Of a stretch of DNA of 64,000 nucleotides, positions 2,641 to 63,805 are shown one piece after another. Every line of letters begins with the position of its first letter. Positions within the stretch are counted from its first letter, which is position 1. Under the pieces are notes generated by a model. The model was not told the DNA's origin. It worked only from the letters and a program-made list of their open reading frames with translations, and did not search any database. Location: the NCBI RefSeq assembly GCF_947507565.1, contig NC_089176.1, positions 4,019,882-4,083,881 of the forward strand. Reading direction: 5' to 3'. The translations under genes and the position numbers were made by a program. This stretch comes from Oscarella lobularis. Lineage: Eukaryota.

Positions 2641-2790
2641 TGTGGTGATTCAGATTTCAGAAATTATTTCATCTTCCGTGTTTTTAATTAATCTAAGTGA
2701 GAAATTATTTCGTCTTCCGTGTCTTTAATTAACTCAAAATAAAACTAAATGATCATCAGTTCATTAATTAACTGCTGTGACGTCAGTGAG
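2641..2790. repeat. Conserved 3' flank shared by the GIY-YIG array units. It contains an internal direct repeat 'gaaattatttc[ag]tcttccgtgt[ct]ttt' (two copies) and an A-rich 'aactcaaaataaaactaaatgat' element.
   Basis: Nearly the same block recurs at 4868-5010. A more diverged version sits at 1100-1200. Confidence 0.6.
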
Positions 2791-3388
2791 TGACCTTTTC
2801 TTCTCTTAATTAACTCGAGTCGTAGCTGTTTTCGCTATAAGTGCTATCATTATCATTATCGTATTCTTCAATTTCAATTTTATTGGTTGCTCCTGCGTAT
2901 CCGTTTTGCATGTATCAGTTCCACGGAAAAACTCTGAGTGATACTGATACTTCTAGTAGCGAATCAGATGATACGCTTCTTTTTTGATGGTTGATTGTTT
3001 TGGCAGAATTTACAATAATGATAATTAGGCACTTGGATTATGAGTTTACTTACTTTCTAAACCAACGAATGGGTGAATGTTTTTCTAACGCGTCACCGAA
3101 GCCGACCTCTTTCTGGGTCAGAACTCCTGGAAAAAATGAGATTGCATTTTCTTAAGTCTAATTAATGGTGAGAGACGAGGGATGCGCGTGCCCGCGTTGC
3201 CGTTACGAGAATGCGCGCGTCCCAAGACTGAGTTTGGGAATTACTTTGCGGACGCTTTTCGGGTCGTCACGGTGCCAGGAGCCGCGATCGTACACGAGGC
3301 ATAATTAACCGGGAGTGACAACGATATCTACGAGTGAAAATAAACTGTCCCGGCTATATAGAGGGGTGGCTTTGTTCCGGGTTCGGAA

Positions 3389-3889
3389 ATGGTGCACTTC
3401 TTTGTCTATATTCTCGACTTAGACCACGGAAAGTTTTACGTTGGATCTACGAAGAATTTGGAGAGTCGTTTGAGAGCGCACATTGAGGGGAAGGGGGCCG
3501 AATTTACGAAGGTTCACAAACCTTTGGCTCGTGAAATCGTCTCGGAATACTTTCAATGTTTTTCGTACGAGTCTGATGAAGAAGCACTGAGCGGTGAATT
3601 GATGGCAACTCTTCAGCTGATGGACGAACAAGGAATAGAAAATGTGAGGGGCGGACCTTACTGCGAAATGACTTTATCAGACGCCACGAAAAAAGAAATA
3701 CAGAGATTAATTGATCATCTTAAAGGTCAATGCTACAAGTGTCACAAGCGTGCTCACGTACTGAGAGACTGCCAATCAATTCAGCATTCTGCTTCCCAAT
3801 ACCGTGGCAGAAACGACTACATGGTGCCTGGAGCTCTTGAAAACAGATTTCAAGACAGTGATCAGGGTGGCTATTGTAGAATTTTGTAG
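3389..3889 (+). CDS. GIY-YIG/CCHC array copy 5, with one degenerate knuckle.
   Basis: ATG at 3389, preceded by a TATA-like 'gctatatagagg'. 'HFFVYILDLDHGKFYVGSTKNLESRLRAHIEGKGAEFTKVH...LQLMDEQGIENVRGGPYCEM...CYKCHKRAHVLRDC'. Confidence 0.65.
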   Translation: MVHFFVYILDLDHGKFYVGSTKNLESRLRAHIEGKGAEFTKVHKPLAREIVSEYFQCFSYESDEEALSGELMATLQLMDEQGIENVRGGPYCEMTLSDATKKEIQRLIDHLKGQCYKCHKRAHVLRDCQSIQHSASQYRGRNDYMVPGALENRFQDSDQGGYCRIL

Positions 3890-4021
3890 CTTTCTCTCCG
3901 TAATTGGATTCAGTTTTAGCTTGATGATTTTTCGTTATATTATATCGATTGTCACGCGTTGCTTATGCGCATTTCCGGGGGTCAACGCCCTCGATTGGGG
4001 ACTCTCTTGGCTTACCAGTGC

Positions 4022-4819
4022 ATGATGTCGGCTAGTTACTTTGTCTACGTTCTCCAACTCGAAGGAAATCGATTCTATGTTGGAACAACGACCGATGTAA
4101 ATCGTCGCGTGAGACAGCACTTTTCTGGTGAAGGAGCCGCTGCATTCACAAGACGATACGAAGTTATTCGTGAATTGAGGGACGAGAGACAGGAATTCGG
4201 TTCTAAAGAGGAGGCGAGTCAAGCGGAAACGACCAAAACGTTGAAGTTGATGAGCGAGAAAGGCATCGACTACGTCAGAGGTGGCCAATATTCCCAAATT
4301 GACTTTTCCGACGAAACTAAAGAAGCAATACAAAGAAACATCGATCAAATGCAGAGCAACTGTTTCAAATGTCACCAGCCAGGCCACATGACCACCCAGT
4401 GCCCTACTAATACACGTGCTGCAACTAATACACGTGCTGCAACACGTGGACCAAATCGTTCTGCAACGCGTGGACCGAATCGTGTTCAACCGTACACCCG
4501 TCAACGCCCAGCCGCCGTAAGTTTTGTCTGCAGGCGCTGTAGGCGCCCTGGGCATAGCGAAGACAACTGTTTTTCAAAATCGACTGCTGATGGAAAGCCC
4601 CTGGGTAATACTTTTAGTATTGAATTAGACTCAGATGATGGTATCTGCTTTCGGTGTGGGAGACGGGGCCATCGGCAAAGCGAATGCTTTGCTTCGACAA
4701 CTGTTGATGGTGTCCGTGGTGGTGGAGGTAGAGGAGGTGGATGCTTCCGGTGTGGAAGAACAAGTCATTGGCAGGATGAGTGCTATGCCTCTTGGTCTGT
4801 TGATGGGAGGCCTCTCTAG
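4022..4819 (+). CDS. GIY-YIG/CCHC array copy 6, the longest copy, with four knuckles and an internal tandem peptide repeat.
   Basis: ATG at 4022. 'MMSASYFVYVLQLEGNRFYVGTTTDVNRRVRQHFSGEGAAAFTRRY'. Knuckles 'CFKCHQPGHMTTQC', 'CRRCRRPGHSEDNC', 'CFRCGRRGHRQSEC', 'CFRCGRTSHWQDEC'. Repeat 'TNTRAATNTRAATRGPNRSATRGPNR' at about 4405-4485. Confidence 0.7.
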   Translation: MMSASYFVYVLQLEGNRFYVGTTTDVNRRVRQHFSGEGAAAFTRRYEVIRELRDERQEFGSKEEASQAETTKTLKLMSEKGIDYVRGGQYSQIDFSDETKEAIQRNIDQMQSNCFKCHQPGHMTTQCPTNTRAATNTRAATRGPNRSATRGPNRVQPYTRQRPAAVSFVCRRCRRPGHSEDNCFSKSTADGKPLGNTFSIELDSDDGICFRCGRRGHRQSECFASTTVDGVRGGGGRGGGCFRCGRTSHWQDECYASWSVDGRPL

Positions 4820-8531: not shown

Positions 8532-10537
<2,006 letters not shown>

Positions 10538-38725: not shown

Positions 38726-41534
38726 TTACCATATTTTATCGGTTAATATAACGCATTCCGTTTCGCCGTGTTTTTTTCCTTTGACAAATCGCTTTGGCGG
38801 ACATTCGACGTACGCCTCTTCGCCGCACACGTGCTCTATCGTTTCAAGAATCTCACGTGCTTCCGGTCGACGTCCGGGTTCGTCAAAGGTCAATCGAATG
38901 CACGCGTCTTTGAGAATTGGATGACGAATGCGCTGCAATTGGCTACTGCGCATGTTTTTCACAGCGGTGCATCCGCTGAATAATTCGCCGAGTGTTACGC
39001 CGAGACTATAGACATCCGCCGCGATGCTATTGTGTCTAGCGAAGAGCGGAGGAGGCGTGCCGCTTCCCCGACCGCTCTCCGTCGAAGATTGACAATTGGG
39101 CGATCGTTCTGGAGCGAGATATTCGCTGCTTAGGGGGCCGATTGAAAAGGAGGCGTTTAGAACGTGCGAAGCGCCGAGATCGCCGATTTTTGCTTCCATT
39201 AGAGTCGATAGAAGCACGTTGGTCGGTCGTATGTCGCCGTGGAGAATTGTGGGTCGGAGTTGATGGAGATAGGAAATTCCCGAGAGGCATGCGCGCGCTA
39301 TGTCGACCATTTCGCGCGTCGTCAAATAGGACGTGAGATGCGCCGCTTGCATGACGTCAGTCAGGGAACCTTCGAGAAGTTCGAGAATGAGACACGGATG
39401 TTTGCGATTGACGGTGACGACGCCACAGATGGAAACGATGTGCGGATGTCGGGCCCGGCTGCACATGCGGATTTCCTGTTCGAATAACGGCATATTATGC
39501 TCGGAGACGAGAATTTCGTAGATGATTTTGACGGCGACGTGAGTTCCACGCCAACGCGCCACTTTAACCTCTAAAAACATAATTAATTTTATTGATTTTT
39601 GCCTTTCTGTCTCTTCTCACCAGCAAAGCTTCCTTTTCCGAGATTTATATCCGTTATTTCGAGATCGTCTTCCGGTACATTCATCACGTCTAATATCTCG
39701 CTCATTTGTCGTTCCCATTCGAGTCGCGCTTGATCCGCACTCAATCCCGATCTCTTTAGACGTTCGCATTCCTCTTCAACGGTTCTTAATCGTTCGATTA
39801 GGGCCGTTTTTTCCGCTTCAATGCGTCGTTTTGCGTTGCAATCCAACGTCAAAGTGCCCACGCGTTCTTCGAGTTTCGCAATGGAAGTCGACTTCTGAAG
39901 AATTATGAGTTTCAATTGTTCGATTTGTTTGCGTTTTTCCGAGACTTCGTCGCGTAAATTGCGATCGCATTCCTTGGCGCGTTCGCGTTCGAGTTCCTGT
40001 ATGGCAACTTCGCATTTCACTTGACTCTTACTCAATTCAACATCGCGTAATTTGAGTTGTTCATCCAATTGCGCTTTCGTTTCGTTGAGCGTTTGAATGT
40101 CGCGTAATCGACGCGATAGAAGAACTTGTTGGCTCTCCATCTGTCGTTTTAATTCGCGCAAACGCCCGTCACTGTCCGCTAAAGACATTTGAAATCGCGC
40201 TTCGAGTTTTCCGATTGTTGCAAGCGCTTCTTCGTATTCGAGACGCGTTTGTGTGAGATCGTTTTCGAGTTTTTCGTTCTCCAAAGAAAGTCGTCGTCTG
40301 TCGTCGCGTAGACGCGTCGAATCGTCGCTCTGATCGCGTCGCGCCGTCGCGAGACGATCGACTTCGCCTTTGAGGAGAAGACGATTCGTCGTACTCATTT
40401 CGAGTTCGCGTCGAAGCGCGTTAATCGTTTCGTCGTGCGCGTGAGCGAGTTCTTGGAGTTCGTCTTCCTTTAGGCGTTTTTCCGCTTCGATTTTTTTCAC
40501 GCTCGTTACGAGTTCGTCGATTTGAACGTGACATTGATCGATTTTGTGTTTGAGATATTCGACTTCGCCTTTCATTCGCGAAATTTCGAGGATTTGATCG
40601 TTTTTGCTGCGAACGAGTCGTTTCGATTCTTCCGTTAATTTTTCAATAATTAAACGATAATCTTGTTCGGTCGATTCCGTGCTTGCGACAATCATAGCCG
40701 CTTGGGTTGATAAAATCATTGTTTTTCGATCGGCTTCACAAAGCCTGTCTAAGGAAATGAAATAAATAAAATAAATAAAACGTGAGATGTGTATGGATTA
40801 TTTTTAGCATCCCCCCTTCCCCCTCCCTCCCTTCCCTTTTAATTAATTAACATAATGACCTTTCTCATCATCTCTCATATTACCTCGCATAATGTTTCTC
40901 AGATATTGAACTGTTTCCGATTTACTTCCGTTACTCGAATTACGAAACTCGGTTTGCTCGAGAACGTTACGACCGTAGGTGTTTTTCGCTTCCAAATCGG
41001 CGCCTTCTTCGACGAGAAGACGTAGCGTATCGACGTGATTCTTCGTCGCGGCGAGATGAGCGGGCGTACTCCCTTCCTTGTTCGGTGCGTCAATTCGCGC
41101 ACGAACGCGCAGCAAGAAACGCACGACTTCGAAGCTTCCCTTCGCCGCCGCCCAATGAAGCGCCGTCCAGCCGTTATCGTCGACGTTTTCGATATCGGCG
41201 CCGCGTTCGACGAGCGCTCGACAGACGTCGAATCGATCGTTGACGGCCGCTTCGCGTAGAGGCGTGTATCCGAGTGCATTGCGCACATTTACGTCGACTC
41301 CTTGATCGAGCGATAAACGAACGCGACTCACGTCGCCGTCGCGAGCCGCTTCGAGAAGTTCTCGATTGTGATCGAATGCTGGCGCCGCTACGGGATGCGG
41401 TGGAGGGAGAAAAAGAGAGGGAGGGCGTTCTTCGCGTTTACGGAAACGGTTTTTGTGTGTAGCTACTTACGTTGGCTCATGTGACGACGAAACGTCGGCT
41501 TATTCGACGTGAATTTCTTTGTGATGAAGCTCAT
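38726..41534 (-). CDS. Protein kinase with N-terminal ankyrin repeats and a coiled-coil of about 370 residues upstream of a C-terminal TKL-like kinase domain. At least four exons.
   Basis: Exon 1 is 41534-41469 ('MSFITKKFTSNKPTFRRHMSQR'). ANK exon at about 40843-41400 ('GYTPLREAAVNDRFDVCRALVERGADIENVDDNGWTALHWAAAKGSFEVVRFLL'). Coiled-coil exon 39589-40719 is heptad-rich and E/R/L/K-rich, and ends in the glycine loop 'LGKGSFAG'. Kinase exon 38726-39580 ('VAVKII', 'HGDIRPTNVLLS', 'KIGDLGAS', 'EYLAPE'). Confidence 0.7.
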
Positions 41535-49335: not shown

Positions 49336-51497
49336 TTCCAATACAAAATTGATCGAATATGATGTCGAGAATGTCTTCGGTTCCCACTTTGCCCGTTATT
49401 CGACCCAATTCAGTTAATGCGAGTCGGACTTCCTCTGCGGCGAGAACCGTTTCCATTTCCGCTAGAGTCATATGACGGAGGTGAGTAGGACTCACTCACC
49501 CAAAATAGCACAAGGTCGCGATCAAGGTCGGCGTGTGTGAGGTCGTTGCACGTGTTGGGTGGCGTGTGAGTGCGTACACAGGTAGTGCTTACCGCATTGA
49601 GATCGATCAAGACATTCCACGCATTCTCTGAGGTGTTTTCGATGTCGACTTCGAGTGAGAGACGGAGAATCAATCAAAGGATCACCGCATCTGAAATAAA
49701 GTAATTATATAGGAATAGGGGTTTTGATTTTACAGTTTCTTTAGTTCAGATTCGAGGAGTTGAAGTAGATGATCTATTCCAGCTGACGTTGTACAGGAAA
49801 TGGAGCAGGATACATACGCCTCATTCTTGATAGACAGGAAAATAGTCCCTTCTTTTTTCCTGCTGACCCTTACTTACTTTCAACATGCTACTAATGTAAC
49901 TTTCTTCTTCCGGACTCCTCAGATCGATTTTGTTAGCGACGACGATCAAACGTGCCGCCGTTCCCACGAAATGCGACAAAGATCCAAGACAAGACGAATC
50001 AATGACAACGAGTATTAAATCAGCGTTCTCAGCTCTGAGAACGAAGAGTCAATATATATAGATATTGGCTATTATTTTTGTACTTTTCTATTGCGCGTTT
50101 GACGCCCTCTCTTTCCACGGGATCGTTTGTTTTACGCAATCCCGCCGTATCACTTACGATGACTGGATAACCGGCGATATTCAATGCTGTCTCGATTACG
50201 TCTCGCGTTGTTCCGGCGACGGGGGAAACGATAGCGGCGGGGCGTTCGCCTGAAACTGAATGTTGGCTAAATTCAATGAAGGAGGAGGGAGTTACTTAGA
50301 ATATTGAGCAAGCTGCTTTTGCCCACGTTTGGTTCTCCGACTATAGCTAATCGAACGCCGCTTCGAAGACGTTCTCCACGTCTTGCGTCGCGTAAATGAG
50401 TGCGGATTTCGTCTATGATGCTTTTGATTTCTACTCTAGCTGTGAAGGAAGAAATTTGAGGGGGAGACTAGGAGAAGGAGTTTGAGTGTTTTGCCTTTAT
50501 CTAAGATATTGTCTTCTATGTCTTCACTCTCGCCAAAATCAATTGTTGCTTCGTAATAAGCTAAGCACTGTGAAGAATTCGCGATTAAATGGTTTCGTTG
50601 TTTCTACAGTACCTTGGCTAGAGAATTAGTCCATTTTGAATAGACTTTACTTAGGTGTCCCTAGGGTAGGTATGAGGATAATGTACATGTAATCTTGTGC
50701 TATTAACCTCCATCTGTCTCAATGCTTGTCGTCGTTGAACTTCCGTTTCGGCGTTAATTAAATCGGCCAAGCCTTCTACTTCCGTGAGATCAAATTTCCC
50801 GTTTAGAAATGCTCTAATTATTTAGTTAATAAATAAATAAATAAATAAATAAATAAATAGTGGGAGTGGAATGAGTGCGTGCCTCTTTGTGAATTCCCCG
50901 GGTTCTGCGTATCTTATGCCTTTTATAGACTGTAGTAGATCGGTCAAGGCAGATAGAACGGCTATGCTGCCATGCACGTGATATTCTACCACGTCTTCTC
51001 CTGTAAAACTGTTAGGGCCTACACAGTGTTACAAAGGTCATTCACATATAATGTACAGGGTCTTACGTGGAAACCAGAGAGCAATGGCTTTGTCAATGAG
51101 TTCATGCGTGACCGGATTGACGAGTTTTGTCAGTGTAGCTACTCTTGCTTGTGGAAGATGGTCCATTTTGCAAATATCTCGTAGAGTCTGGAGGCAGGAA
51201 AAACTGGAGGGATTGTCGGACTATCTGAGGTCGTACTTTAGAGGCCAAAGGCCCTGATACTCGAACAACAGCTACGCCTGTAAGGAGAGTGAGCTAGAAA
51301 TGTAGTAGAAGTAGAGAAGATTGCAATTCCCACCGCATTTTCCATGACCAGATGATAAAGCGAATATCGTAGGCGACCAATTTCTGTCACAAAACCGTCG
51401 CAAAAATACCAATTGCGCTCTGCAGTGTCGTTTGGCAGATTCGAAGCAAATAAATTGCTGCGAAGAAAGGAAAAGTTTTCTGAATAATACGGGCATT
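49336..51497 (-). CDS. GTPBP3: Mitochondrial tRNA-modification GTPase GTPBP3 (MnmE/TrmE homolog), multi-exon.
   Basis: N-terminal '[13 protein letters not shown](V)AVVRVSG'. '[14 protein letters not shown]', '[27 protein letters not shown]', '[12 protein letters not shown]', '[24 protein letters not shown]'. G domain '[39 protein letters not shown]', '[11 protein letters not shown]'. C-terminus '...[13 protein letters not shown]'. Confidence 0.8.
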
Positions 51498-51784
51498 TTT
51501 CCTGATGGCACGCAGCATAGATACACGCCGTAAGTCGTTTTCTTATAGTCTGTCCGCGTCTTACAGATTAGGCTTTCACCCGATGGGACCTCTACGATTA
51601 ATTTCCAATGCGTCTACGCGTCGTCCTACGAGGGTGCCGAGTCCTCGTGATTCTAAACTTCATCCCGAACTAAAGAAATCCTCAGATGAATGCATGGTGG
51701 ATTGATGGAACGTGCCAAGCGCCAAAACATTGTTTCGTGCTCCAGTGACGTCCCATCGGGGCCCCCTAGCTCCGTTGTTGATCT

Positions 51785-54120
51785 TTGTCTGGCAGTTGCG
51801 CTTTGACGTCGTTTCTTTGTTTAGACTATGAGGTCTTCCTTTTGTGCACGGAAACGTTTAAAGAATTGATGACAAACGTGCAGGAGAATCTTGCTGCTGA
51901 GGAGCATGGTATCAAGGCATTTTACGCCCCAACTAGCATTGATTGGGGCGGTTATCAAAGCGCTGCTATTGAAGAAGCGATTACGCAGTCCTCTCACGCT
52001 GTTATCATTTATTCCGATATACAAGATAGCTGTTGGACTTCTATTAGAGAGTCTATAGTTTGGAGGCAAATGTGCACCAAGCTAATCAAAGAATTGCCCT
52101 TAAGACCGCCTAATGTTTCTGAAGGCGACATCATAAGAACTATGCCGCTTTCTGCATCTAGGAAATTTAAAGAAGTTACTACTGAAACGTCTCCTACGAC
52201 GCTGGCGAAAAATATTGCTAAGGCGGTCAGAAACGAAAAGCAAGCTCCTTCTTCTAAATTGAGAGGCCAAGCTGATAAGAGGGTTGTTGTTCTTGACGAT
52301 GAGCCGTTCTGCCAAGATATATATAAGTAAGTATGCCCAAATAGGCCCAGTAGTTTTAGTTTGCAAATTCTTTAAATGGCTAGAGGTGTTTTCGTACGTA
52401 ATCAAAAGAAACGTTTGGTGGCTGTCAGAAAAGCTCTTTTGAATGACAAACGGATGAGAAATGAAATTGATATCTTGCAAGAATCAAGCAAATGCGACAA
52501 TTTGATTGGATTTATTGATGCCGTGGTAAGTCTACCATGTAGCGAGGACGTGTATTAGATGTCTACTGCAGACGATTGACACCGTTTGGCACTGCTGTCT
52601 TCAATATTGTGCATATTCAGTAGAACAAGTAGGTGCCCAGTCATCATAAATGCCATACGCGATGTGTATTCCTTTCATTTATTTGCAGTATGTACTTGAG
52701 AAGGCCCTACAGGACGTTATTGACGAAATTGACATTGTTCGTGGTGTTGCTAATGGCTTAGACTATCTTCACAGCAGGAAAAAACCGATAAGTAAGATGC
52801 CGTGTCCTTAATTAAGGTCATATTCGCTTTAACAATTAACTAATTAGCTCATATAAATCTCGCCCCTGCTGGCGTACGTATAATGGTGGAGGAAGACAGA
52901 AAGGCAGAAGCAAAAATTTGTGATATAAGTACTTCGCCCAGATTGTACGAACATGCAATGGAAGGATTCATTGTCAGAACAGTAGATGTGGGTAGGTGGG
53001 GCTGTGTGTTAGTATCTTACTTTTTGCAGAATCCGAGTCCTTATGTGGATGTCTTTTCGTTTGGATGCTTTGCGTACTACGTCATCACAAAAGGAGAGCA
53101 TCCGTTCAGTAAACCGGGGAGCGGGAGCAGTAAGCGAAGCGAAATTCAGTCAAGAATAGACTCTGGCGAGCATAAACCTACTTTCAAAGCGTTGGAAGGT
53201 GAGTTAATTAATTAATTAATTAAACGCGTATTTAGTGCGGCTTTAATTAATATTTTAGATTTGGTGAACGAAAGCATGCAACCGAAGGTGGATGAAAGCA
53301 GAGAAGCGGGGTTGAAAGAAAAAATTAGACGTATAGGGAATCCAGCAGCAGCTTTGGAGCTTGTGAAATCTACGTTAGGCAAAGGAAAAAAGTGAGTTTG
53401 CCTGTCAGTGCGTGCCTTCTCAGCAGATGCAGCTCGTTGCTGTGAACGCCTAGGCCTTCATCTTGCTGTATTAAAAGTCACTGTTACTTTTTCGAGCCGG
53501 CTCGCCAAGTTGATTTTCATACTGTACGTGGTGGTAATCATTATTCAACTTCATTGCTGTTACGGTTTCTACACAGAAATTTGGCTCTTGTACACCATTT
53601 TATGAAGAGATGGATCCTAAGATGGATCCTAAGAGTGCGAACGTGCGGCACTGGCTTTTGGACGAATTGGCTAACCATGATGAAGAAGTCCTTGGTTCTA
53701 CCACGTTGTGGGGAGCTAAATTTAAATATTTGGAAGCAAAAGGAGGTAGTGTTCTCGTAGTTACTTCTCATTAACTCTTTGTTAAAAGCGTTTCTAGATT
53801 TTCTAAAGAAGTGTGAAAATAGGTGCGATACATACGGAAATTCCGTGCAATCCCTTTCAAAATTCCTGCGTAATCAAGTACGAAACTTTGTGTTTTCAAA
53901 AAATAAACTAACTATAGGACGATACGTATAGTTCTGCCACGAACTTAACGATGACAAAATAGAAGAATTTTTTCAATTGACGAATGAAAAGAAAGCAGTG
54001 TTTCTCAACCGTGGGTTTCCCCGACTTCTTCCTGTATGCTGGGAGATAAGCAAGAAAGTACCCAATTTGTCTGTGTATGGGTATCACTGCAAGAAGCATT
54101 CGGCAATCACCTTTTCATGA
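51785..54120 (+). CDS. Kinase-like gene, probably a pseudokinase, with an unknown N-terminal domain. Multi-exon, and the structure is uncertain.
   Basis: Exon 1 is ORF 51785-52330 and has no known domain. Then 'RLVAVRKALLND...EIDILQ', 'GLDYLHSRKKPI', and 'HINLAPAGVRIMVEEDRKAEAKICDISTSP' (HRD becomes HIN, DFG becomes DIS), then 'DVFSFGCFAYYVITKGEHPF'. Further exons run to '...VFLNRGFPRLLPVCWEISKK...*' at about 54120. Confidence 0.4.
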
Positions 54121-54232
54121 CATCTCGGACTCTAGCCTTTTTTTTTTTAGTTTTTACGCTGTTGCACTCACTGGCTGTTTTTCTTTCGCTTTGTATGTTG
54201 TTATTGATTTATACGGGCATTTTCACGTGGAG

Positions 54233-54913
54233 ATGTTGCTGGTTGGCCTTTCAGGCGGAATAGCAAGCGGTAAAAGCACCGTTTCGCGACTATTGTTGGA
54301 TTGCGGATGTCCTATCATCGACGCCGATCAAATAGCTCGCCAAATCGTGCAGCCGGGCTTGCCTAGCTGGCACGCGATCGTTCGCAAATTTGGCCGAGAA
54401 ATTTTGAACGAGGACGAAACGATAAATCGCGAAAAACTCGGAAAAATCATATTTGATGATCCAGCTAAGCGAAGAGTGCTGAACGGTTGCACGCATCCGG
54501 CCATATTACGCAGAATGTTGTGGCAAATTTTGACGAATTTTATTCGAGGAGAAAAAGTCGTAATCTTAGATTCTCCGCTTTTGTTTGAGAGTGGAACGTT
54601 TGTTCGATACGTTCATCGTACAATTGTTGTATGGTGTTGCGAGGAAAGGCAAATTGAGAGACTTTACCTTCGAAATGGATTTGATAGAGACAGCGCTCTC
54701 AAGAGAATTTGTGCTCAAATGCCATTGGACGAAAAGCGTCGAAGGGCTACGTACGTTATTGATAATGACGGTCAACTAGAAAATACAAGACAGCAAGTTC
54801 AAGAAATTTACAAAGAACTCATCAAGTCGAAGTGGTGTTTGATGGGAAGGATTTTTAGACTGTCTTGTTCTTTTCTTATAGGACTTTTTGTAGCTCTATG
54901 GTTTCTGTCGTAA
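54233..54913 (+). CDS. Dephospho-CoA kinase (CoaE)-like P-loop protein with a hydrophobic C-terminal tail. Copy A, intact, single exon.
   Basis: 'MLLVGLSGGIASGKSTVSRLLLDCGCPIIDADQIARQIVQPG...AIVRKFGREILNEDETINREKLGKIIFDDPAKRRVLNGCTHPAI...VVILDSPLLFESG...TIVVWCCEERQIERL' follows the dephospho-CoA-kinase fold pattern. The tail is 'CLMGRIFRLSCSFLIGLFVALWFLS*'. Confidence 0.7.
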   Translation: MLLVGLSGGIASGKSTVSRLLLDCGCPIIDADQIARQIVQPGLPSWHAIVRKFGREILNEDETINREKLGKIIFDDPAKRRVLNGCTHPAILRRMLWQILTNFIRGEKVVILDSPLLFESGTFVRYVHRTIVVWCCEERQIERLYLRNGFDRDSALKRICAQMPLDEKRRRATYVIDNDGQLENTRQQVQEIYKELIKSKWCLMGRIFRLSCSFLIGLFVALWFLS

Positions 54914-55041: not shown

Positions 55042-58000
55042 ATGGCGAATGCGGTCGAAAACGCGGCGACGGCGGAGCAACTAAACTACACGAACCCTTT
55101 GTCGTCGAAAAGTGATCAAGCACACGATCGTTTAGGAGCCGATATGGTTACCCGTGACCTGCTTATAAAAGCGTCGAAGAGAATCGCCTCGGTTTGGGAG
55201 AGCATTGCGAGACACCTTGACGTTCCTGAAGAAAGAATTAAAGCGATTCTTTGTGACTCTAATTTCAGAAATTTAGAAAAAAAGGCCTACGAAATGTTGG
55301 ATAAGTGGTGGGAAAAGAATTACAAAGAAGCCACGGAGGCGAAACTGTGTCTTGCTCTGTTGAGTGAAGAAATGACAGCAACGGCATCGGATCTCTTTGG
55401 AGACGAACTTGTTGAAGCTTTGAAGAGTTCAAAAAAAGGTAAGACTGATGTGATGGCTTATTTCGTCTTCTACACACTAATGATTATCGAACAGGTAGTA
55501 CCTTTTCCCAGCCCCAGAAGCAGCAAATCCAGCGCAACGGAAGTGATCTCGACACGACATCATTTGGGTCTAGAAAGGAAGAAATGAGAGCATCCTTTTC
55601 TAGCACAGAGTCGACTAAGCTCACAAGCAGCCAGGTAGGGGAAACAGATGGGAGAGAAACACAAAGTGAGCTGTTTTTGCTAACAATCTTTATTCATAAA
55701 TTGTGCTCTGCAGAACCAGTCATGTCTACTGAAGGGGCGTACGCACTTGGAGACGAAAATAAAGCATTCTGTACAGGTGATGGTGAGTGAATTAAAATTT
55801 TAGGGAATCGACGGATACGACTAGATTGTTTTGGTAGAGTTTTTGCGGCAAGGCTATCTGCAAAACAGATGCCTTTTGAGCTCACCGAAACCATTTTTTG
55901 GAAGGAAAAAAATTAGCGAAGATGTTGTCAACGCAGTAGAACAAAGGACGCCCGTTTGCTGGATTTGGGGTCCTCCCGGATGTGGAAAAAGTGCCGTCGC
56001 AATTAATGTTGTTCACAATCTAAATAAATCAGGCAACTATTCAATACCAATGTTCTTGGAAGAACCAAGCAACGTGAAACAAGTGGAGGAATTTATAATG
56101 TTGCATCTAAAGCGCGCTGAAACGTTTCAATCATACAAAGTGTTTTTTATTGACAAATGTTACACCATGTTAAAAAAGGAAGACGAGGAGGAGAAGTTTG
56201 TTGAAGCGATGGAGCGACTTTCTAAGTCTCATCCTCATGCGTTCACAGTTATAATTACAGCGTACGAAAAGCCTTCACTTCACTACAAACTCAACATCAG
56301 CTCACTAAAAGTCTCATGGCCTGACAGAACAGAAGCGGTCGAACTATTGGCCTTGAGCTGCAGAGGCGTCGACGTTAACGCAGTTAAAAATCACTACTAT
56401 CTAACCCAACTGCTTGCGTCTTGCTGCTGTAGAATGCCTTTTGCTATTATTGCTGTTGGATCAGTCTGGGTCGAGCGGCTTGAGTCCACCACAGATGTAC
56501 CTGCGTCTCTGCGAGAGCAACTTGAGTGCTTCCGTAATAGACACTCACTGTTTCAAGACTTTTGTGAAAATTTTGATAGCAAAAGGAGAGTTCTTCAAAA
56601 GTGCTTTGAAAAGTTTTATTTGTATTTATCTGCCGACTTGCAGAAAGCTCTTCGCTGTCTTTCGGTTGTTAACGGATCTTTTAGCAAAAACTGTGGAGAA
56701 CGATTTCTTGGTAAAGACGTTACTCAAGGAAAAATAACTAGTTTGTTGATGCTCGGTATTCTTGAGTCAGAAGAATGTCATCATTACTCTATACCGGATC
56801 TTTTTCGTCAGTATGTACTGACTCTAAGTGATCATCAGGACGCGCACGAACGTGCGAGAGCGGCGTATTGCAAGTATATAAAAAAAGTAATGGTTCAAAT
56901 GTGGAAAAATCGTAAAAGCGCGAAAGCATTAGAGATTTTTCAAGCCAACAGAAGAAGAATTGAAGGATTTTTAGAGGATTCTACTTCAATTGAAAGCGAC
57001 GCTGGTAAGAGTCTTGCCCTTGTCATTTGTATGACGGAGTACTCAATAGACGGCAAAGTGCTGCTAGAATGCACTTCGCCTTCTATTATCTGCCAATTTT
57101 GCAAATCGTGCCTAAAAAGCTCGCGTTTTCATGAAGAAGACCGTTTACATGTCTCTTTATTCTACGCTCAAGTCCTCCTACATCGGTGTCCGAGGCGTCG
57201 TATTGATGCGATTGATCGACAGCTTTCATTTTGTAAAACTCATTTGGAAGCGTTGTCAGCAGACAAGCAAGAGAGTTTCAGAACAAGATACTTGGTAACA
57301 TTGGTTGAATTGTGTTTGGTGAAGGGAACGAGCTTACTAGACGAAGATTTGGATGAAATAGAGAAGCAGAAGAGACTGCAGAATAAGGCTGCGCGACTAG
57401 CTGCAGCAAAAGCGCGCTTTCAACTGGGCGCGATGAGTTATGGAAAAGATGTCGATAGAGCACACGGTCATTTGAACGAGGCTGTTAGACACTTCAGAGA
57501 GTGCCGGGATGAACTACGCGAGACAGACTGTTCTAGATGTTTACATCAAATGTGGATTGGTGATTGTCTCTTTCGAAAGGGAAACTACAAAGACGCTCTC
57601 GGCGTTTTCAATGATCTATTGAAGGAGATAGAAGAAGTGTCTTGGCCTGGCGAAGGCGTTGAAACCAAAGACAGAAAAAACATGCGTATCTCTGCTATCT
57701 GTTATGCTCAAGGTTTGTCTCAAACTCTGCACTGTTTTGCTGAGAATTCTGGATGGAATGCCGATCAGCTGAAAGAGTGCCTTAAGTTGTTCGAGTCTTC
57801 GCTTGAATATATCCGAAATTGCTCCAACTCACCTTTTCTGCATTTTATTTACCTGGCAAAAGGAAAGCTGCATTTGTTGCTTTTTCTATGTGGAGAAGAA
57901 CATGATTCTAAACAATTGGAGTTGGCAACTCAATGCTTTGAAAAAGCGGCCGAAAATGACCGTATTCAATGTGAAGCCTCTTCTTTTGAGAAGATCTGCA

Positions 58001-58653
58001 ATGCTCCAGGCAAACTTTCAACGAAGAACATTTTTGATTCGGCCAAGATATTTCTTCCTTCAAGCGGCGGCTTTGTCAACATGCAAGAACTTTTCAAAAG
58101 CTGTAAGCGGCGGAACGAAGCGTTAGATCCTTACAAATCTCTCGGAATAAGTCTTTTTGCAAATTCTGCTTTGTATCTGGACAGCTTAAAAAGGGAACGG
58201 AGCAAAGAAGTAGTGTCGCTAGAAAAGGAAGACGTCGACTTCGAGTTTTCTGATGAGGACGACGACGAGGAAGAGGAAGAGGAAGAGGAAGAGGAAGGGG
58301 TTTGGTGGGAAAATGATGTAAAAGCTCAAACCGAGTTTCCAGACGAGAATTCTTCACGTAGGTTATTAATACCATCTAATTGCTTTCGGTCTCTGTCTCT
58401 TTTTGAGCAACACCAACTCTGTCGTCGAAGTAGTGAATCGCGTGGGAATACCAATACTCTAACCAATTTCGATAGTAGCCTCAGTCAGTGGCAAGTCTCA
58501 AGTTATGCTGCTGGTGATGGTGGCGGTGGTCTAGAAAAAAGGGAACGAATTGATCAGAAGTCTATTGGTATTCGCAGTCAAGATGACGAGAGCTCGTTGG
58601 AACTGATATCTTTAGTGGCTGAGCCTCCAACTATGTCAAAATCGCCGCCTTAA
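55042..58653 (+). CDS. NLR-like receptor: death domain, then a STAND P-loop NTPase (NB-ARC/NACHT-like), then TPR-like helical repeats, then an acidic tail. Three exons: 55042-55438, 55495-55782 and 55838-58653.
   Basis: Death-domain exon 'LLIKASKRIASVWESIARHLDVPEERIKAILCDSNFRNLEKKAYEMLDKWWEKNYKEATEAKLCLALLSEEM'. Walker A 'VCWIWGPPGCGKSAVAI'. Walker B 'KVFFIDKC'. A long alpha-helical repeat region follows. Poly-E tract 'DEDDDEEEEEEEEEEEG'. Splice phases were checked (1, 1, 0). Confidence 0.7.
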
Positions 58654-58711
58654 GATTTATTTTAAGTGGACTGAACAATGTTGCTAAGGCATCGCTACTT
58701 TTTCAGCCGTT

Positions 58712-59420
58712 TAGAAATGCTCTAATTATAATTATTTAGTTAATAAATAAATAAATAAATAGTGGGAGTGGAATGAGTGCGTGCCTCTTTGTGAATTCCC
58801 CGGGTTCTGCGTATCTTATGCCTTTTATAGACTGTAGTAGATCAGTCAAGGCAGATAGAACGGATATGCTGCCATGCACGTGATATTCTACCACGTCTTC
58901 TCCTGTAAAACTGTTGGGGCCTACACAGTGTCACAAAGGTCGTTCGCCTATAATGTACAGGGTCTTACGTGGAAACCAGAGAGCCATGGCTTTGTCAATG
59001 AGTTCATACGTGACCGGATTGACGAGTTTTGTCAGTGTAGCTACTCTTGCTTGTGGAAAATGGTCCATTTTGCAAATATCTCGTAGAGTCTGGAGGCAGG
59101 AAAAACTGGAGGGATTGTCGGACTATCTGAGGTCGTACTTTAGAGGCCAAAGGCCCTGATACTCGAACAACAGCTACGCCTATAAGGGGAATGAGCTAGA
59201 AATGCCGTACTATAGAAGATTGTATTTCCCACCGCATTTTCCATGACCAGATGATAAAGCAAAGATCGTAGGCGACCAATTTCTGTCGCAAAAACATCGC
59301 AACTGTTGCAGAATTGCTCGATGACGTCGTTTGACCGATTTGAAGCAGAGAAATTGTGGCCAAGAAGGAAAACGTCGATTGAATAATACGGGCATGTCTT
59401 TTCTAACGTGCGTCTTGCGA
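58712..59420 (-). pseudogene. Duplicated fragment of the GTPBP3 5' region (promoter, exon 1, exons 2-3). It is a paralogous copy of 50806-51530.
   Basis: Near-identical sequence. Compare ORFs 58874-59086 and 58914-59159 with 50972-51184 and 51051-51257. 59210-59458 (-) encodes '[18 protein letters not shown]' as in GTPBP3 exon 1. No downstream GTPBP3 exons follow. Confidence 0.6.
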
Positions 59421-59424
59421 CGAG

Positions 59425-60003
59425 ATGTTGCTGGTTGGCCTTTCGGGCGGGATAGCAAGCGGTAAAAGCACCGTTTCGCGAATACTGTTGGACTGCGGAT
59501 GTCCTATCATCGACGCTGATCAAATAGCTCGCCAAATCGTGCAGCCGGGCTTGCCTAGCTGGCACGCGATCGTTCGCAAATTTGGCCGAGAAATTTTGAA
59601 CGAGGACGAAACGATAAATCGCGAAAAACTCGGAAAAATCATATTTGATGATCCAGCTAAGCGAAGAGTGCTGAACGGTTGCACGCATCCGGCCATTTTA
59701 CGCAGAATGTTGTGGCAAATTTTGACGAATTTTATTCGAGGAGAAAAAGTCGTAATTTTGGATTCTCCGCTTTTGTTTGAAAGTGGGACGTTTGTTCGAT
59801 ATGTTCATCGTACAATTGTTGTATGGTGTTGCGAGGAAAGGCAAATTGAGAGACTTTATCTTCGAAATGGATTTGATAGAGACAGCGCTCTCAAGAGAAT
59901 TCGTGCTCAAATGTCATTGGACGAAAAGCGTCGAAGGGCTACGTACGTTATTGATAATGACGGTCAGCTGGAAAATACAAGACAGCAAATTCAGGAAATT
60001 TGA
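59425..60003 (+). CDS. Dephospho-CoA-kinase-like copy B. It is truncated: a stop follows 'QQIQEI' and it lacks the hydrophobic tail.
   Basis: About 95% identical to copy A over 'MLLVGLSGGIASGKSTVSRILLDCG...TRQQIQEI*'. It sits directly after the duplicated GTPBP3 5' fragment. Confidence 0.55.
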   Translation: MLLVGLSGGIASGKSTVSRILLDCGCPIIDADQIARQIVQPGLPSWHAIVRKFGREILNEDETINREKLGKIIFDDPAKRRVLNGCTHPAILRRMLWQILTNFIRGEKVVILDSPLLFESGTFVRYVHRTIVVWCCEERQIERLYLRNGFDRDSALKRIRAQMSLDEKRRRATYVIDNDGQLENTRQQIQEI

Positions 60004-60049
60004 TGAGTACTGTATTCCTTTCATTTATTTGCAGTACGTACTCAAGAAG

Positions 60050-61480
60050 GATTGAGCGTATGACACCCTAAAGGGCGTTGTCAATGAAATTGGGATTGTT
60101 CGTGGTGTTGCTAGTGGCTTAGACTATCTTCACAGGAGGGAAAAACCGATAAGTAAGGTGCTTAGCTTAGGTTTCTCAAGTAAGCCACTTTAATAACAAT
60201 TAATTAGCTCGTATAAATCTCACCCCCTGCTGGCGTACGTATAATGGAGAAAAACGGAAAGGCAGTAGCGAAGATTTGTGTTACAAGTACTTCGTCCGAA
60301 TTGAATGAACAGGCAATTAATTGCAATGGAAGGATTCATGTCTCCTGAATTCACCGTCAGAACAGTAGATGTGGGTAGGCGGGGCTGTGTGTCAGTGTCT
60401 TATTTCTGTAGAATCCTGATGCGGATGTCTTTTCGTTTGGATGTTTTGCGTACTACGTCATCACGAAAGGACAGCATCCATTCTGTGAACCGGGGAGCGG
60501 GAGCAGTGAGCGAAGCAAAATTCAGTCAAGAATAAACTCTGGCGAGCATAAACCTACTTTCGAAGCGTTGGAACGTAAGTTAATTAATCAATTGATTAAT
60601 TAAACACGTATTTAGTGCCGCTTTAATTAATATTTTTAAAATTTACTCTACGTAGATTTGGTGAGCAAAACCATGAAACTGGAGGTGGAAGAAGACGAAC
60701 TTAGACGTATAGGGAATCCAGCAGCAGCTTTGGCGCTTGTGAAATCTACGTTGGACGAAGGAAAAAAGTGAGTTTGCCTGTCAGTGCGTGCCTTCTCAGC
60801 AGATGCAGCTCGTTACTGTGAATAGGCCTTCATCTTGCTGTATTACAAGTCACTGTTACTTTTTCAACCCGGAACGCCAATGCCATTTTCATCATGTACG
60901 TGGTAATCATTACTCAACTTCGTTGTTGTTACGATTTCTACGCAGGATTTTGGCAATTGTACACCATTTTATGAAGGGAAGAGAACTGGTAATATGGACA
61001 TGGACCCGCTTTTGGACGAACTGTCTGAACACGAAAAAGAAGTCTTTGGTTCTACCAAGTGGGGAGTTCGACTTCTAAGTTTTGGAGCAAAAATAGAAAT
61101 TGAAAATGGTATTGTTTTCTCATAGTTAGTTCTTATCAACTCTTTGTTAAAAGCGTTCTAGATTTTCAGTTCAAGGTTGCATTTAAGGGTAAGGGCGGGA
61201 GAGATGCAGCCAAAAAGTACGACAATTCCATTCAAGGTTTTTCATATTTCCTGCGTGATCAAGTATGAAACTTCGTGTTTTCAAAAATAAACGAACTACA
61301 GAATGATACATGTAGTTTTCTCACGAACTTAACGATGAGAAAAAAAGAGAATTTTGGGAATCGGATGATAAGAAAGCATTGATGCTCAACCGTGGGTTTC
61401 CCAGGCTTCTTCCTGTGTGCTGGGACATAAGCAAGAAAATGCCCAATTTGTCCAAGTATCACTGCGACGAGAAGCATTAG
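60050..61480 (+). pseudogene. Degenerate second copy of the kinase-like gene, paralogous to about 52690-54120.
   Basis: Recognisable remnants 'GIVRGVASGLDYLHRREKPI', 'KICVTSTSSELNEQAINCNGRIHVS', 'VLRTTSSRKDSIHSVNRGAG', 'MLNRGFPRLLPVCWDISKKMPNLSKYHC', with frame disruptions. Confidence 0.4.
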
Positions 61481-61757
61481 ACAATGACCTCTTCATGATA
61501 TCTCTGCCTCTAACCCTTTTTCTAGTTCTACATTTTTACACTGTCAGTTGCACTCACTGACTGTTTTTTTTCTTCGTTTTATACTGTATGTCGTTAGTCT
61601 ATATGGATGCTGCTGGCCGGTCACTACTAATTAACCGTTCTCGGTATTTAATTAACGAAAGCTGTCCGAGGCTACCTGATGATGTACAGTACAGTGGAGA
61701 GGGCGTGCACTAGCCACCCCCGCGTACGGGAGTACGGGAGTGAGATTTCGATCCAAG

Positions 61758-62021
61758 ATGGCGACTGCGAGCGAAAGAGACAGGGTTCCCAAAAGGCATC
61801 GCCTTCGGGCGGTGGCCAGCTACATCGGCCCATACTGGGAGCATATCGCTGACCACCTTCTACTCGAGTCCTCTTGTGAAAGGACCATTGAGAGGATTCG
61901 CCGTGATTACAAGTTCTCTCAAGATCAAGCTTTCCAAATGTTGTGCACGTGGTCGGAAATGTTTCATACGGAAGCTACAGAGGAGAAACTGTGCCTTGCT
62001 CTATTAAGCGAAGAGTGCTGA
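61758..62021 (+). CDS. Small death-domain-only ORF (DD-2).
   Basis: 'MATASERDRVPKRHRLRAVASYIGPYWEHIADHLLLESSCERTIERIRRDYKFSQDQAFQMLCTWSEMFHTEATEEKLCLALLSEEC*' has a death-domain-like pattern (W..IA..L, qAf.ML..W, ATxxxLxxAL). Confidence 0.45.
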   Translation: MATASERDRVPKRHRLRAVASYIGPYWEHIADHLLLESSCERTIERIRRDYKFSQDQAFQMLCTWSEMFHTEATEEKLCLALLSEEC

Positions 62022-62449
62022 ACGGTTGCACGCATCCGGCCATTTTACGCAACATGTTGTGGCAAATTTTGACGAATTTCATTCGAGGAGAAAAAGTCGT
62101 AATTTTGGATTCTCCGCTTTTGTTTGAAAGTGGAACGTTTGTTCGATACATTCATCGTACAATTGTTGTATGGTGTTGCGAGGAGAGGCAAATTGAGAGA
62201 CTTTATCTTCGAAATGGATTTGATAGAGACAGCGCTCTCAAGAGAATTCGTGCTCAAATGTCATTGGATGAAAAGCGCCAAAGAGCTACGTACGTTATTG
62301 ATAATAACGATCAGCTGGAAAATACAAGACAGCAAACTCAACAAATTTACAAAGAACTCCTCAAGTCAAAGTGGTGTTTGATGGGCAGGATTTTTAGACT
62401 GTCTTGTTCTTTTCTTATAGGTCTTTTTGTAGCACTATGGTTTCTGTGA
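62010..62449 (+). pseudogene. C-terminal half of a dephospho-CoA-kinase-like copy (copy C), fused out of frame onto the end of the DD-2 exon.
   Basis: 'RRVLNGCTHPAILRNMLWQILTNFIRGEKVVILDSPLLFESGTFVRYIHRTIVVWCCEERQIERL...CLMGRIFRLSCSFLIGLFVALWFL*' has no P-loop half. The junction sequence 'ttaagcgaagagtgctgaacgg' is shared with copy A ('ctaagcgaagagtgctgaacgg'). Confidence 0.5.
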
Positions 62450-62523: not shown

Positions 62524-62926
62524 ATGTCGTCGAAACTGCCGCACGATCTAGCCGCCGGCGCTGGACAGAAATTGCCAAGTGCGATTCGTCGTCTCAAGGA
62601 TAGAGGGAATGGTTGTAGTAGCGTAGAACGATTTTACAGACGAGATACTTCTCGACCTCGCGAAGAAAATCGGCGGAAAGTGGGATTTTGTAGCAGTCCG
62701 GCTTGGGTTGGCAGATCACGAAACTGAGAATATCCGTGACAATTTCACGAAAGTGCAAGACCGAGCTTTTGAAATGTTGAAGACGTGGCGACAGAATGCC
62801 TTCAAAGACGCAACTCGTACCAATCTCTGTATCGCCTTGCTTAAAGAAAAATTGAAGAGTATCGCGTCGGAAACTTTTGGGGATGACTTTGTTGAAGGGG
62901 TCGACAAATCATTATCGCAGAAGTGA
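62524..62926 (+). CDS. Death-domain protein DD-3. Probably two exons, with a very short intron at about 62608-62636.
   Basis: 'MSSKLPHDLAAGAGQKLPSAIRRLKDRGN' | 'EILLDLAKKIGGKWDFVAVRLGLADHETENIRDNFTKVQDRAFEMLKTWRQNAFKDATRTNLCIALLKEKLKSIASETFGDDFVEGVDKSLSQK*'. Confidence 0.45.
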
Positions 62927-63089
62927 AGGTGATTTTCAAGAAACACGATGATTTGTCCAAGTATCACTGCGAGAAGCATCCGACAGTGTGATATCTCTGC
63001 TCTAGCTCTTTTTCTAGTTTTTACGCTGTTACTTTCTTTCTTTTGCTTTTTGTTATTATCATACGGGCATGTTCAATGTGGATACAGTA

Positions 63090-63300
63090 GCAAGCGGCGA
63101 AAGCACCGTTTCGCGAGTACAGTTGGATTGCGGATCGACGCCGATCAAATAGCTCGCCAAATCGTGCAGCCGGGCTTGCCTAGCTGGCACGCGATCATTC
63201 GCAAATTTGGCCGAGAAATTTTGAACGAGGACGAAACGATAAATCGCGAAAAAGTCGATCCAGCCAGCTAAGCGAAGAGTGCTGAATGGTTCCAGCTATT
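63090..63300 (+). pseudogene. Decayed dephospho-CoA-kinase-like fragment (copy D) with internal deletions.
   Basis: '...ASGESTVSRVQLDCGSTPIK', then 'IARQIVQPGLPSWHAIIRKFGREILNEDETINREKVDPAS*', then 'AKRRVLNGS' in shifting frames. Confidence 0.45.
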
Positions 63301-63410: not shown

Positions 63411-63805
63411 CAAACATGGCGGCGCACGTCGGGGCTGGAGAAGAATTGTCAGGTACAATCCGTCGTCCCAAGGATAGAGAATGATTGTAGCAGCGTAGAA
63501 ACGATTTTACAGATAAGACACTTCTCGACGTCGCGAAGAAAATCGGCGGAAAGTGGGATTTTGTAGCAGTCTGGCTTACGCCCAAGTTGGAAGAGCATGA
63601 AATTGACAATATCAAAGCCAATTTTACGAGAGTACAAGACCAAGCTTTTGAAATGTTGAAGATGTGGCGAAAGAATGGCCACAAAGCTGCAACTCCTACC
63701 AATCTCTGTGTCGCCTTGCTTGAAGAAAAGTTGAAGAAAATCGCGTCGGAAACTTTTGGGGATGACTTTGTTGAAGGGGTCGACAAATCATTATCGCAGA
63801 AGTGA
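63411..63805 (+). CDS. Death-domain protein DD-4, a paralog of DD-3 with the same two-exon layout.
   Basis: 'MAAHVGAGEELSGTIRRPKDRE...' | '...LLDVAKKIGGKWDFVAVWLTPKLEEHEIDNIKANFTRVQDQAFEMLKMWRKNGHKAATPTNLCVALLEEKLKKIASETFGDDFVEGVDKSLSQK*'. The last 72 residues are about 80% identical to DD-3. Confidence 0.45.

Follow-up and report, generated by a model that had tools for sequence, protein, structure and literature searches.

What does a gene do whose kinase domain has been disabled, in a neighbourhood of Death-domain and STAND genes? The question is raised by a stretch of 64,000 nucleotides of the homoscleromorph sponge Oscarella lobularis (NC_089176.1, positions 4,019,882 to 4,083,881; hereafter the window, to which all coordinates refer). 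A first reading of the letters alone (the sequence-only reading) had placed there, at 52376-53400, a kinase-like gene without catalytic residues and had proposed a pseudokinase scaffold reminiscent of MLKL, IRAK2 and IRAK3. The gene, termed gene 1, was found to continue beyond the kinase part into a kinase-extension nuclease (KEN) domain, and its kinase domain to be closest to those of IRE1 and RNase L. From its domains, gene 1 would encode a cytosolic TIR-like-pseudokinase-KEN effector of the IRE1/RNase L superfamily, resembling RNase L, with an RNase switched on by oligomerisation of the N-terminal TIR or Death domain; this is the interpretation that is favoured here, with moderate confidence. 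The family is restricted to the Oscarella lineage and also has a Death-pseudokinase-KEN member.

The window is eukaryotic sequence with short GT-AG introns. Exons 1-7 of gene 1 are the same as those of an NCBI protein model of O. lobularis, P0001, and exons 8-12 were modelled by homology to a paralogous NCBI model, P0002. The parts of the gene are as follows.

51505-54120, + strand: gene 1, whole, 12 exons encoding 587 residues (TIR-like, pseudokinase, KEN), with the stop codon TGA at 54118-54120
51505-51529, 51825-52326, 52384-52525, 52572-52628, 52689-52791 and 52848-52972, + strand: exons 1-6, as in P0001
53030-53198, 53259-53391, 53454-53523, 53577-53745, 53798-53877 and 53932-54120, + strand: exons 7-12
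51825-52326, + strand: exon 2, with the TIR-like domain (residues 9 to about 100, YEVFLLC...SCWTSIRES), then a linker
52292-53198, + strand: pseudokinase domain, residues about 165-375, from the end of exon 2 to exon 7, recognised by Pfam Pkinase, a PDB match to IRE1, AlphaFold (AF2) and Foldseek
52572-52628, + strand: exon 4, 57 nucleotides, TIDTVWHCCLQYCAYSVEQ, the β5/hinge segment, equivalent to 'YIAIELCAATLQEYVEQ' of IRE1
52973-53029, + strand: intron 6, with GT and AG ends
53454-54120, + strand: KEN domain (HEPN-type RNase), exons 9-12, recognised by Pfam, hhalign and AF2/Foldseek

All 11 introns are of the GT-AG type, and the spliced open reading frame (ORF) is unbroken. The product is 83-86% identical to P0001 (100% through exon 7) and 60-64% identical to P0002; both models carry the NCBI name 'serine/threonine-protein kinase/endoribonuclease IRE1-like'. 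A look-up by exact sequence gave no record for either model. Every peptide quoted in the sequence-only reading was recovered on the + strand where it had been placed. The exon model of that reading held only in part: exon 4 was missed, intron 6 was translated and the model ended at 53400, before four more exons (53454-54120). Exon 4 has AG/GT boundaries, is present in both NCBI models and aligns to IRE1. Intron 6 is spliced out in the NCBI models, and nothing corresponds to it in the aligned relatives. In frame and free of stops, it reads VRTVDVGRWGCVLVSYFLQ if translated, and was therefore translated by the sequence-only reading as well as by a prokaryote-style ORF call (P0004). An ENA contig (L001), found by way of an ORF of the locus, matches the window at 100% identity. 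As an independent allele it is thus of no use, yet it makes the locus readable past the end of the window.

The spliced protein scored 46.7 bits against Pfam Pkinase (E 3.6e-12; cutoff 31.7), so that the kinase assignment is not due to chance. Its motifs were compared in a residue-level alignment to human IRE1 and in a 42-sequence alignment of the family, the correspondences below being those to IRE1 and to 39 family members.

52418-52432, + strand: VAVRK, with Arg191 in the column of the VAIK lysine and a Lys one residue later in the alignments
52460-52477, + strand: NEIDIL (helix αC), found as quoted
52850-52873, + strand: catalytic loop HINLAPAG, HRDLKPxN in relatives; identical in P0002, HRDLKPSN in the O. 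pearsei protein P0003
52922-52930, + strand: DIS in place of DFG, with the Asp kept and, in the alignments, an activation segment that is about 20 residues shorter
53048-53107, + strand: DVFSFGC...EHPF (subdomain IX), found as quoted

The HRDLKPxN column is more than 90% conserved in the relatives. In HINLAPAG the catalytic Asp is replaced by Asn280, the Lys by Ala and the Asn by Gly. The Asp retained in DIS is Asp302. The glycine-rich loop GxGxxG has become DDEPFC and, at the end of the shortened activation segment, GWxAPE has become AMEGF; the Glu of helix αC is retained. The losses of HRD and DFG announced by the sequence-only reading are borne out by both alignments, and the Pkinase hidden Markov model (HMM) recognises a domain with VAIK, HRD and DFG all altered. 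In the kinase skeleton that it described, the αC and subdomain IX peptides stand, and VAVRK as an unaltered β3 lysine does not, Arg191 being in the Lys column. No canonical HRD/DFG exon was found in a six-frame motif scan of 51-54 kb that might have pointed to a wrong exon model; HRD-type loops occur in the window only at about 9.9 kb and about 39.2 kb, in unrelated kinases, and the same HIN and DIS motifs are found in P0001 and, letter for letter, in P0002. A pseudokinase is defined by sequence as lacking at least one of the VAIK Lys, the HRD Asp and the DFG Asp (PMC13519141). By this standard definition the kinase domain of gene 1 is a pseudokinase (HRD Asp to Asn280, VAIK Lys column to Arg191), as had been suggested. 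In P0003, a protein derived from a transcript of Oscarella pearsei, the motifs read IIHRDLKPSN and SDFG, and the activation loop is of full length. The clade therefore descends from an active kinase-KEN protein, and the loss in the O. lobularis genes is secondary.

Is the product then a non-enzymatic scaffold or decoy in death-domain signalling, comparable to IRAK3, IRAK2 or MLKL, with an inert or structural KEN domain? The degeneration of every kinase catalytic motif would suit it, and so would the Death and kinase architecture of P0002, which is superficially IRAK-like. The kinase type does not. The best PDB sequence matches of the gene 1 kinase are IRE1 (E 7e-11) followed by RNase L (3e-4), and no IRAK, RIPK or MLKL chain is found in the best 60 PDB matches listed. 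When P0001 and P0002 were searched exhaustively with HMMER against 1.84 billion representatives, about 95 of the best 150 matches carried KEN, and Ribonuc_2-5A was matched in 38 of the 42 aligned family members. An AF2 model computed with the 42-sequence alignment has a predicted local distance difference test score (pLDDT) of about 90 from residue 155 to the end (155-577) and a predicted template modelling score of 0.74. Its top 50 Foldseek matches in the PDB are all IRE1 kinase-RNase structures, over about 450 aligned columns and through KEN. A single-sequence AlphaFold model of P0002 was uninformative (pLDDT 35). An affinity to IRAK had appeared in a word-indexed profile search (mostly plant receptor-like kinases and insect IRAK4, 37-55 bits). 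It was rejected as a by-product of the way in which candidates are selected and of the profile's Death domain, which was included in the profile that matched IRAK4 at 49 bits.

By PDB ranking and by the share of KEN-bearing matches, the kinase of gene 1 is closest to IRE1 and RNase L kinases. The likeness to MLKL, IRAK2 and IRAK3 drawn by the sequence-only reading was not upheld, given this placement and the C-terminal KEN domain. Nor did the annotated O. lobularis proteins yield an active-kinase paralogue for a scaffold to regulate. Pfam found no ankyrin match in gene 1, P0001 or P0002, and no PQQ or lumenal match in the 160-residue TIR-like/linker N-terminus of gene 1.

The KEN domain was recognised by Pfam Ribonuc_2-5A (PF06479) at 26.3-29.1 bits (cutoff 23.3). 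A profile of four Oscarella sequences aligned by hhalign to a profile of 83 IRE1-type KEN domains with a probability of 97% and an E value of 8.8e-11. A strong IRE1 match was also obtained with a profile that contained genuine IRE1 and was discounted as circular. Two sites were located in the domain.

53827-53844, + strand: DTYGNS, with an upstream Tyr at about the position of the catalytic Tyr of IRE1
53869-53940, + strand: Rx4H motif RNQFCH (R523, N524, H528), split by intron 11

In HEPN-type RNases the Arg of the Rx4-6H motif is followed by a polar residue, and roles have been assigned to the catalytic residues (PMC3710099). The Arg and His are invariant in 7 and in 42 aligned KEN domains, and gene 1 keeps the Asn after the Arg. 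A live RNase in gene 1 is plausible on these residues. For an inert KEN it can be argued that the domain evolves fast (ratio of nonsynonymous to synonymous substitution rates, dN/dS, 0.83) and that the Tyr or the Asn is replaced in some copies. Against it, the Rx4H motif and the following Asn are kept in gene 1, P0002 and the O. pearsei homologue. The scaffold or decoy is considered decidedly unlikely. What stands of the scaffold proposed at the outset is the pseudokinase and its Death-domain and STAND neighbourhood; a mere scaffold probably does not, since the gene continues into KEN with an unbroken Rx4H motif, and the pseudokinase would more likely serve to regulate an RNase.

The N-terminal domain is probably TIR-like, as judged from profile matches. 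The N-terminus scored 20.5 bits against Pfam TIR (E 4.6e-4; cutoff 21.3) and matched TIR_2 with an E value of 9.5e-3. Its sole NCBIfam match was to the TIR part of Retron_TIR_antiphage (E 2.2e-4), and PADLOC returned one uncharacterised model, PDC-S66 (E 2.6e-4). These matches are weak but agree with one another: all cover residues 7-81 and start at a typical strand, YEVFLLC. A word-indexed homologue search with this region matched only an ORF of the same locus.

P0002 has a Death domain (Pfam Death, 30 bits) where gene 1 has the TIR-like exon. Its gene and a further partial copy of gene 1 lie downstream in the window.

60005-61477, + strand: copy 2, a partial duplicate of exons 5-12 without TIR or N-lobe exons, with KEN motif RDQFSH
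63416-63802, + strand: Death-domain 5' exons of the P0002 gene (Death-pseudokinase-KEN), which runs past the end of the window

The remaining exons of the P0002 gene, followed by a second Death-STAND gene, are found on contig L002. In a comparison of the window with itself, 52665-54203 matched 60011-61596 at 75.5%. The catalytic-loop exon of copy 2 is frameshifted. The Oscarella family is tiny: besides ORF fragments of the locus, the exhaustive search gave one close relative, O. pearsei P0003 (249 bits), which has the family motifs RIGNPAAAL, SSCCxKSHCYF and RGFPxLLP.

Other segments of the region are repeated as well. A dephospho-CoA kinase (CoaE/DCAKD) gene and three partial copies, 93-97% identical, lie at 54077-54913, 59407-60000, 61907-62446 and 62933-63268, with duplicated Death-domain exons among them at 61683-62018, 62627-62923 and 63491-63802. 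An upstream segment, 50799-51496, is duplicated at 58707-59395. It contains the 5' flank of exon fragments at 50000-51000 on the - strand, directly upstream of gene 1, which by eye only resemble a TrmE/GTPBP3-like GTPase. The region is a patchwork and a hotspot of segmental duplication.

P0001 is chimeric, joining exons 1-7 of gene 1 to KEN exons 8'-12' of the partial duplicate 7 kb downstream, so that its residues 490-577 are 100% identical to copy 2 (tblastn). The junction skips the dephospho-CoA kinase gene, a Death-STAND gene and gene 1's own KEN exons, which are unbroken. In P0002, likewise, one half of each of two duplicated Death exons has been put together. The chimeric models are either annotation artefacts or alternative 3' cassettes. 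On the practical side, they show automated gene models to be chimeric in a segmentally duplicated locus.

Such a locus invites another explanation, namely that a recently duplicated family is drifting to pseudogenes, its motifs lost under relaxed constraint and without present function. In its favour, the region is a mosaic of duplicated segments in which gene 1, the dephospho-CoA kinase gene and Death exons all have broken copies, the NCBI models are chimeric, the family is tiny and lineage-restricted, and dN/dS is 0.6-0.8. The pattern of change between gene 1 and the P0002 gene speaks differently. At synonymous divergences (dS) of 0.14-0.37 the two copies keep ORFs of 12 and 14 exons, with canonical splice sites and no stops. 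The indels between them are multiples of three in all 8 cases in exons, versus 3 of 13 in introns. The degenerate motifs are invariant between the paralogues, and copy 2, which is unconstrained, displays true decay in its frameshifted catalytic-loop exon. The divergence thus described would suit rapid evolution of an immune gene family no less than it suits decay, and drift to pseudogenes is regarded as rather unlikely.

The exons have not diverged evenly. At the nucleotide level, gene 1 and the P0002 gene are 87-98% identical in kinase exons 3-9 and 67-72% identical in KEN exons 10-12 (53577-54120 versus L002 10007-10523), the short introns between the KEN exons being 78-87% identical. This contrast indicates either a mosaic history, with gene conversion over the kinase part, or accelerated evolution of KEN.

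Several observations weigh against the reading of gene 1 as a TIR-like-pseudokinase-KEN effector. At the N-terminus, the Pfam TIR score is under the curated threshold, phmmer found no PDB sequence match for the TIR-like region, and AF2 gave low-confidence helices for residues 1-150 (pLDDT below 50), where it is uninformative because there is no alignment depth. In the kinase, the AF2 alignment was made of IRE1-like sequences, and the Foldseek likeness to IRE1 is therefore partly by construction. As to KEN, the catalytic Tyr is a Cys in P0002 and the motif Asn an Asp in copy 2. Neither phmmer with the KEN region nor an Oscarella-only profile matched KEN in the PDB; the domain is established instead by its Pfam score and by aligning profile to profile. 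For gene 1 against the P0002 gene, dN/dS is 0.60 in the pseudokinase and 0.83 in KEN, not significantly below 1 with these counts, so that relaxed constraint is possible. Decay is plain to see in copy 2, also in this window, and NCBI model P0001 bypasses the KEN exons of gene 1. Lastly, the partnership with STAND proteins considered below is a candidate one, drawn from adjacency and Death-domain similarity only, and the two STANDs of the locus are old paralogues (29% identity).

How would such a protein compare with known systems? Vertebrate RNase L (ANK-pseudokinase-KEN) is cytosolic, as gene 1 would be, and has an N-terminal sensor or adaptor, a dead kinase and then KEN with RNxxxH. Gene 1 differs in having no ankyrin repeats, hence no recognisable site for 2',5'-oligoadenylate (2-5A), and in its TIR-like N-terminus (Death in the paralogue). 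It has also lost nucleotide-binding elements, the glycine-rich loop and the VAIK Lys, whereas RNase L reportedly still binds nucleotide in the 2014 structures of Huang and of Han. Its sequence is nearer to IRE1 than to RNase L (E 7e-11 versus 3e-4). The RNase L clade is defined by ankyrin repeats and restricted to jawed vertebrates (PMC10400998), and gene 1 would therefore be an independent, convergent combination of pseudokinase and KEN.

IRE1 is the best match of gene 1 over kinase and KEN both in sequence and in structure, and the two have the motifs xELCxxxLxxYV, DxFSxGCxxYYVxTxGxHPF, RNxxxH and FPxLL in common. Unlike IRE1, gene 1 has no signal peptide, lumenal sensor or transmembrane segment, its N-terminus being TIR-like (Death in the paralogue). 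With HIN and DIS its kinase is dead, and it has lost most of the activation loop, where IRE1 phosphorylates itself. IRE1 is universal and single-copy, whereas the gene 1 family is lineage-restricted and fast-evolving. Gene 1 is predicted to work like RNase L, as a pseudokinase and KEN under an N-terminal sensor, but it is outside the RNase L clade by sequence and is not IRE1 proper either.

With the IRAK proteins of the Myddosome (IRAK4, IRAK1, IRAK2, IRAK3) and with MLKL, the family has in common a death-fold or TIR adaptor before a kinase or pseudokinase and a position next to Death genes; the logic expected is oligomerisation-driven. The kinase is of another type than in IRAK/Pelle, RIPK and MLKL, and the C-terminal KEN RNase is absent from those families. 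The Death domain that precedes the kinase in IRAK/Pelle is found in P0002, gene 1 having a TIR-like exon instead. As for MLKL, the N-terminus of gene 1 gave weak TIR HMM matches and no evidence of a four-helix bundle, AF2 being of low confidence there.

Kinase-KEN proteins that are neither IRE1 nor RNase L ('PK-RNase homologs') occur in many eukaryotes (PMC10400998). The N-termini of such relatives vary, as in a leucine-rich repeat-transmembrane-kinase-kinase-KEN protein (P0015) and in tandem kinase-KEN proteins of the coral Xenia (P0009, P0013). A further protein outside the window (P0008, on ENA contigs of about 2.1 kb) has a CARD (Pfam E 7.3e-9) and an active IRE1-like kinase with only the start of KEN. 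It is one more fusion of a death-fold domain with an IRE1-type kinase. Gene 1 resembles these invertebrate and protist proteins in joining the cassette to a different N-terminal sensor or adaptor. P0008, P0009, P0013 and P0015 keep HRD and DFG, both of which are lost in gene 1. Among the best 150 matches of the exhaustive search, none has a Death or TIR domain and none a kinase as degenerate as that of gene 1.

The mechanism proposed for gene 1 follows from this comparison. In IRE1 and RNase L alike, the kinase or pseudokinase domain forms a dimer that brings two KEN domains side by side, at a time set by the N-terminal sensor. In gene 1, phosphorylation would be lost and ATP binding probably lost as well. 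Having lost catalytic and nucleotide-binding elements, the kinase is therefore most likely a constitutive, nucleotide-independent scaffold; it would act as a rigid dimerisation platform that places two KEN domains in the manner of IRE1 and RNase L. The pseudokinase of RNase L mediates dimerisation and controls the adjacent KEN nuclease (PMC10400998; PMC13519141). On the most economical model, activation would occur by induced proximity: an oligomeric signalling complex, a STAND/Death or TIR signalosome, would take in the N-terminal TIR or Death domain. RNA would be cleaved as a result, and translation would stop or the cell would die.

Alternatively, the trigger could be a ligand, as in RNase L in the strict sense: the degenerate nucleotide pocket, the TIR-like domain or both would bind a small-molecule second messenger (for example a sponge 2',5'-oligonucleotide or a NAD-derived signal made by TIR) and dimerise in response, instead of being recruited through protein-protein contacts. 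RNase L senses 2-5A at the cleft between ankyrin repeats and pseudokinase (PMC13519141). Sponges produce 2',5'-oligoadenylates without a known RNase L (PMC2852836, PMC6307210). Glu84 in SCWTSIRES may also lie near the position of the conserved TIR glutamate, as read by eye. Yet gene 1 is devoid of ankyrin repeats, the glycine loop, the β3 Lys and most pocket residues are gone, the paralogue has Death, a protein-protein module, in place of TIR, and nothing links the locus to OAS. Gating by a ligand is held to be very unlikely.

Recruitment into a protein complex, the reading preferred here, has candidate partners in the locus.

55120-58650, + strand: gene for a Death, STAND P-loop NTPase and TPR protein (Pfam Death 35.1 bits, AAA 30.2, NPHP3_N 27.1; nSTAND1/3 and TPR weak)

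Gene 1 and the P0002 gene each lie upstream of a Death-STAND NTPase (+TPR) gene on the same strand. The dephospho-CoA kinase gene separates gene 1 from the one at 55120-58650, and the second is about 0.5 kb beyond the end of the P0002 gene. The Death-domain and STAND neighbourhood of the sequence-only reading is real, with one such gene at 55120-58650 and another past P0002. The Death domain of P0002 is 45% identical to that of its downstream STAND (E 1e-20). The Death paralogue would most plausibly be nucleated by the neighbouring Death-STAND NTPase via Death-Death contacts. Overall, the system would resemble an inflammasome or a Myddosome in its assembly and RNase L in its effector. A bolder version can be put forward tentatively, as a possibility on the doubtful side: Oscarella may have built independently an innate-immune effector similar to RNase L, a nucleotide-blind pseudokinase-KEN RNase that is recruited and switched on by death-fold/TIR signalosomes around neighbouring Death-STAND NTPases, an 'RNase-some'. 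It would have done so in a phylum with 2',5'-oligoadenylates but without a known RNase L.

Elsewhere in the window, genes of other kinds were noted. A gene on the - strand at 38.7-41.5 kb was tried as a true ANK-pseudokinase-KEN RNase L and rejected because it ends without a KEN domain. The other observations are listed by position.

1-4816, + strand: tandem array of at least five ORFs with a GIY-YIG nuclease domain and CCHC zinc knuckles, an unusual expanded family at the window start (Pfam on 3920-4816: GIY-YIG 33.9 bits, zf-CCHC 40.6 bits)
9200-10300, - strand: active CDK/MAK-like kinase
10792-12395, - strand: NXPE-family gene
12747-14027 and 14059-15285, - strand: tandem GT31 galactosyltransferase paralogues, 71% identical in nucleotides
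15698-17413, - strand: HARP+SNF2 (SMARCAL1-like) helicase
38729-41466, - strand: ankyrin repeats (40846-41466), a coiled coil of about 400 residues (39592-40797) and a kinase (38729-39616) with atypical HGDIRPTN and GDLG motifs

What would be new in gene 1? To our knowledge, pseudokinase-controlled KEN RNases are known functionally only from vertebrate RNase L. Surveyed partners of KEN are kinase, ankyrin, CCCH, ubiquitin-like and BRCT domains, with no Death or TIR fusion (PMC3710099, PMC10400998). No earlier description turned up in a literature search on KEN+Death, KEN+TIR and Ribonuc_2-5A architectures. The family of gene 1 would be new in coupling pseudokinase-KEN to a TIR-like or Death domain, the kinase-KEN cassette itself being already known. 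Should the 'RNase-some' exist, it would represent a second, convergent origin of pseudokinase-gated KEN RNases and an animal counterpart of the prokaryotic abortive-infection logic of STAND/TIR and HEPN RNases. If the coupling is true, regulated RNA cleavage would have been plugged into death-fold/TIR signalling early or repeatedly in animal evolution. Gene 1 would then provide a case from nature in which nothing but a dimerisation scaffold is left of a kinase domain, and a testable candidate effector for antiviral or allorecognition responses of sponges.

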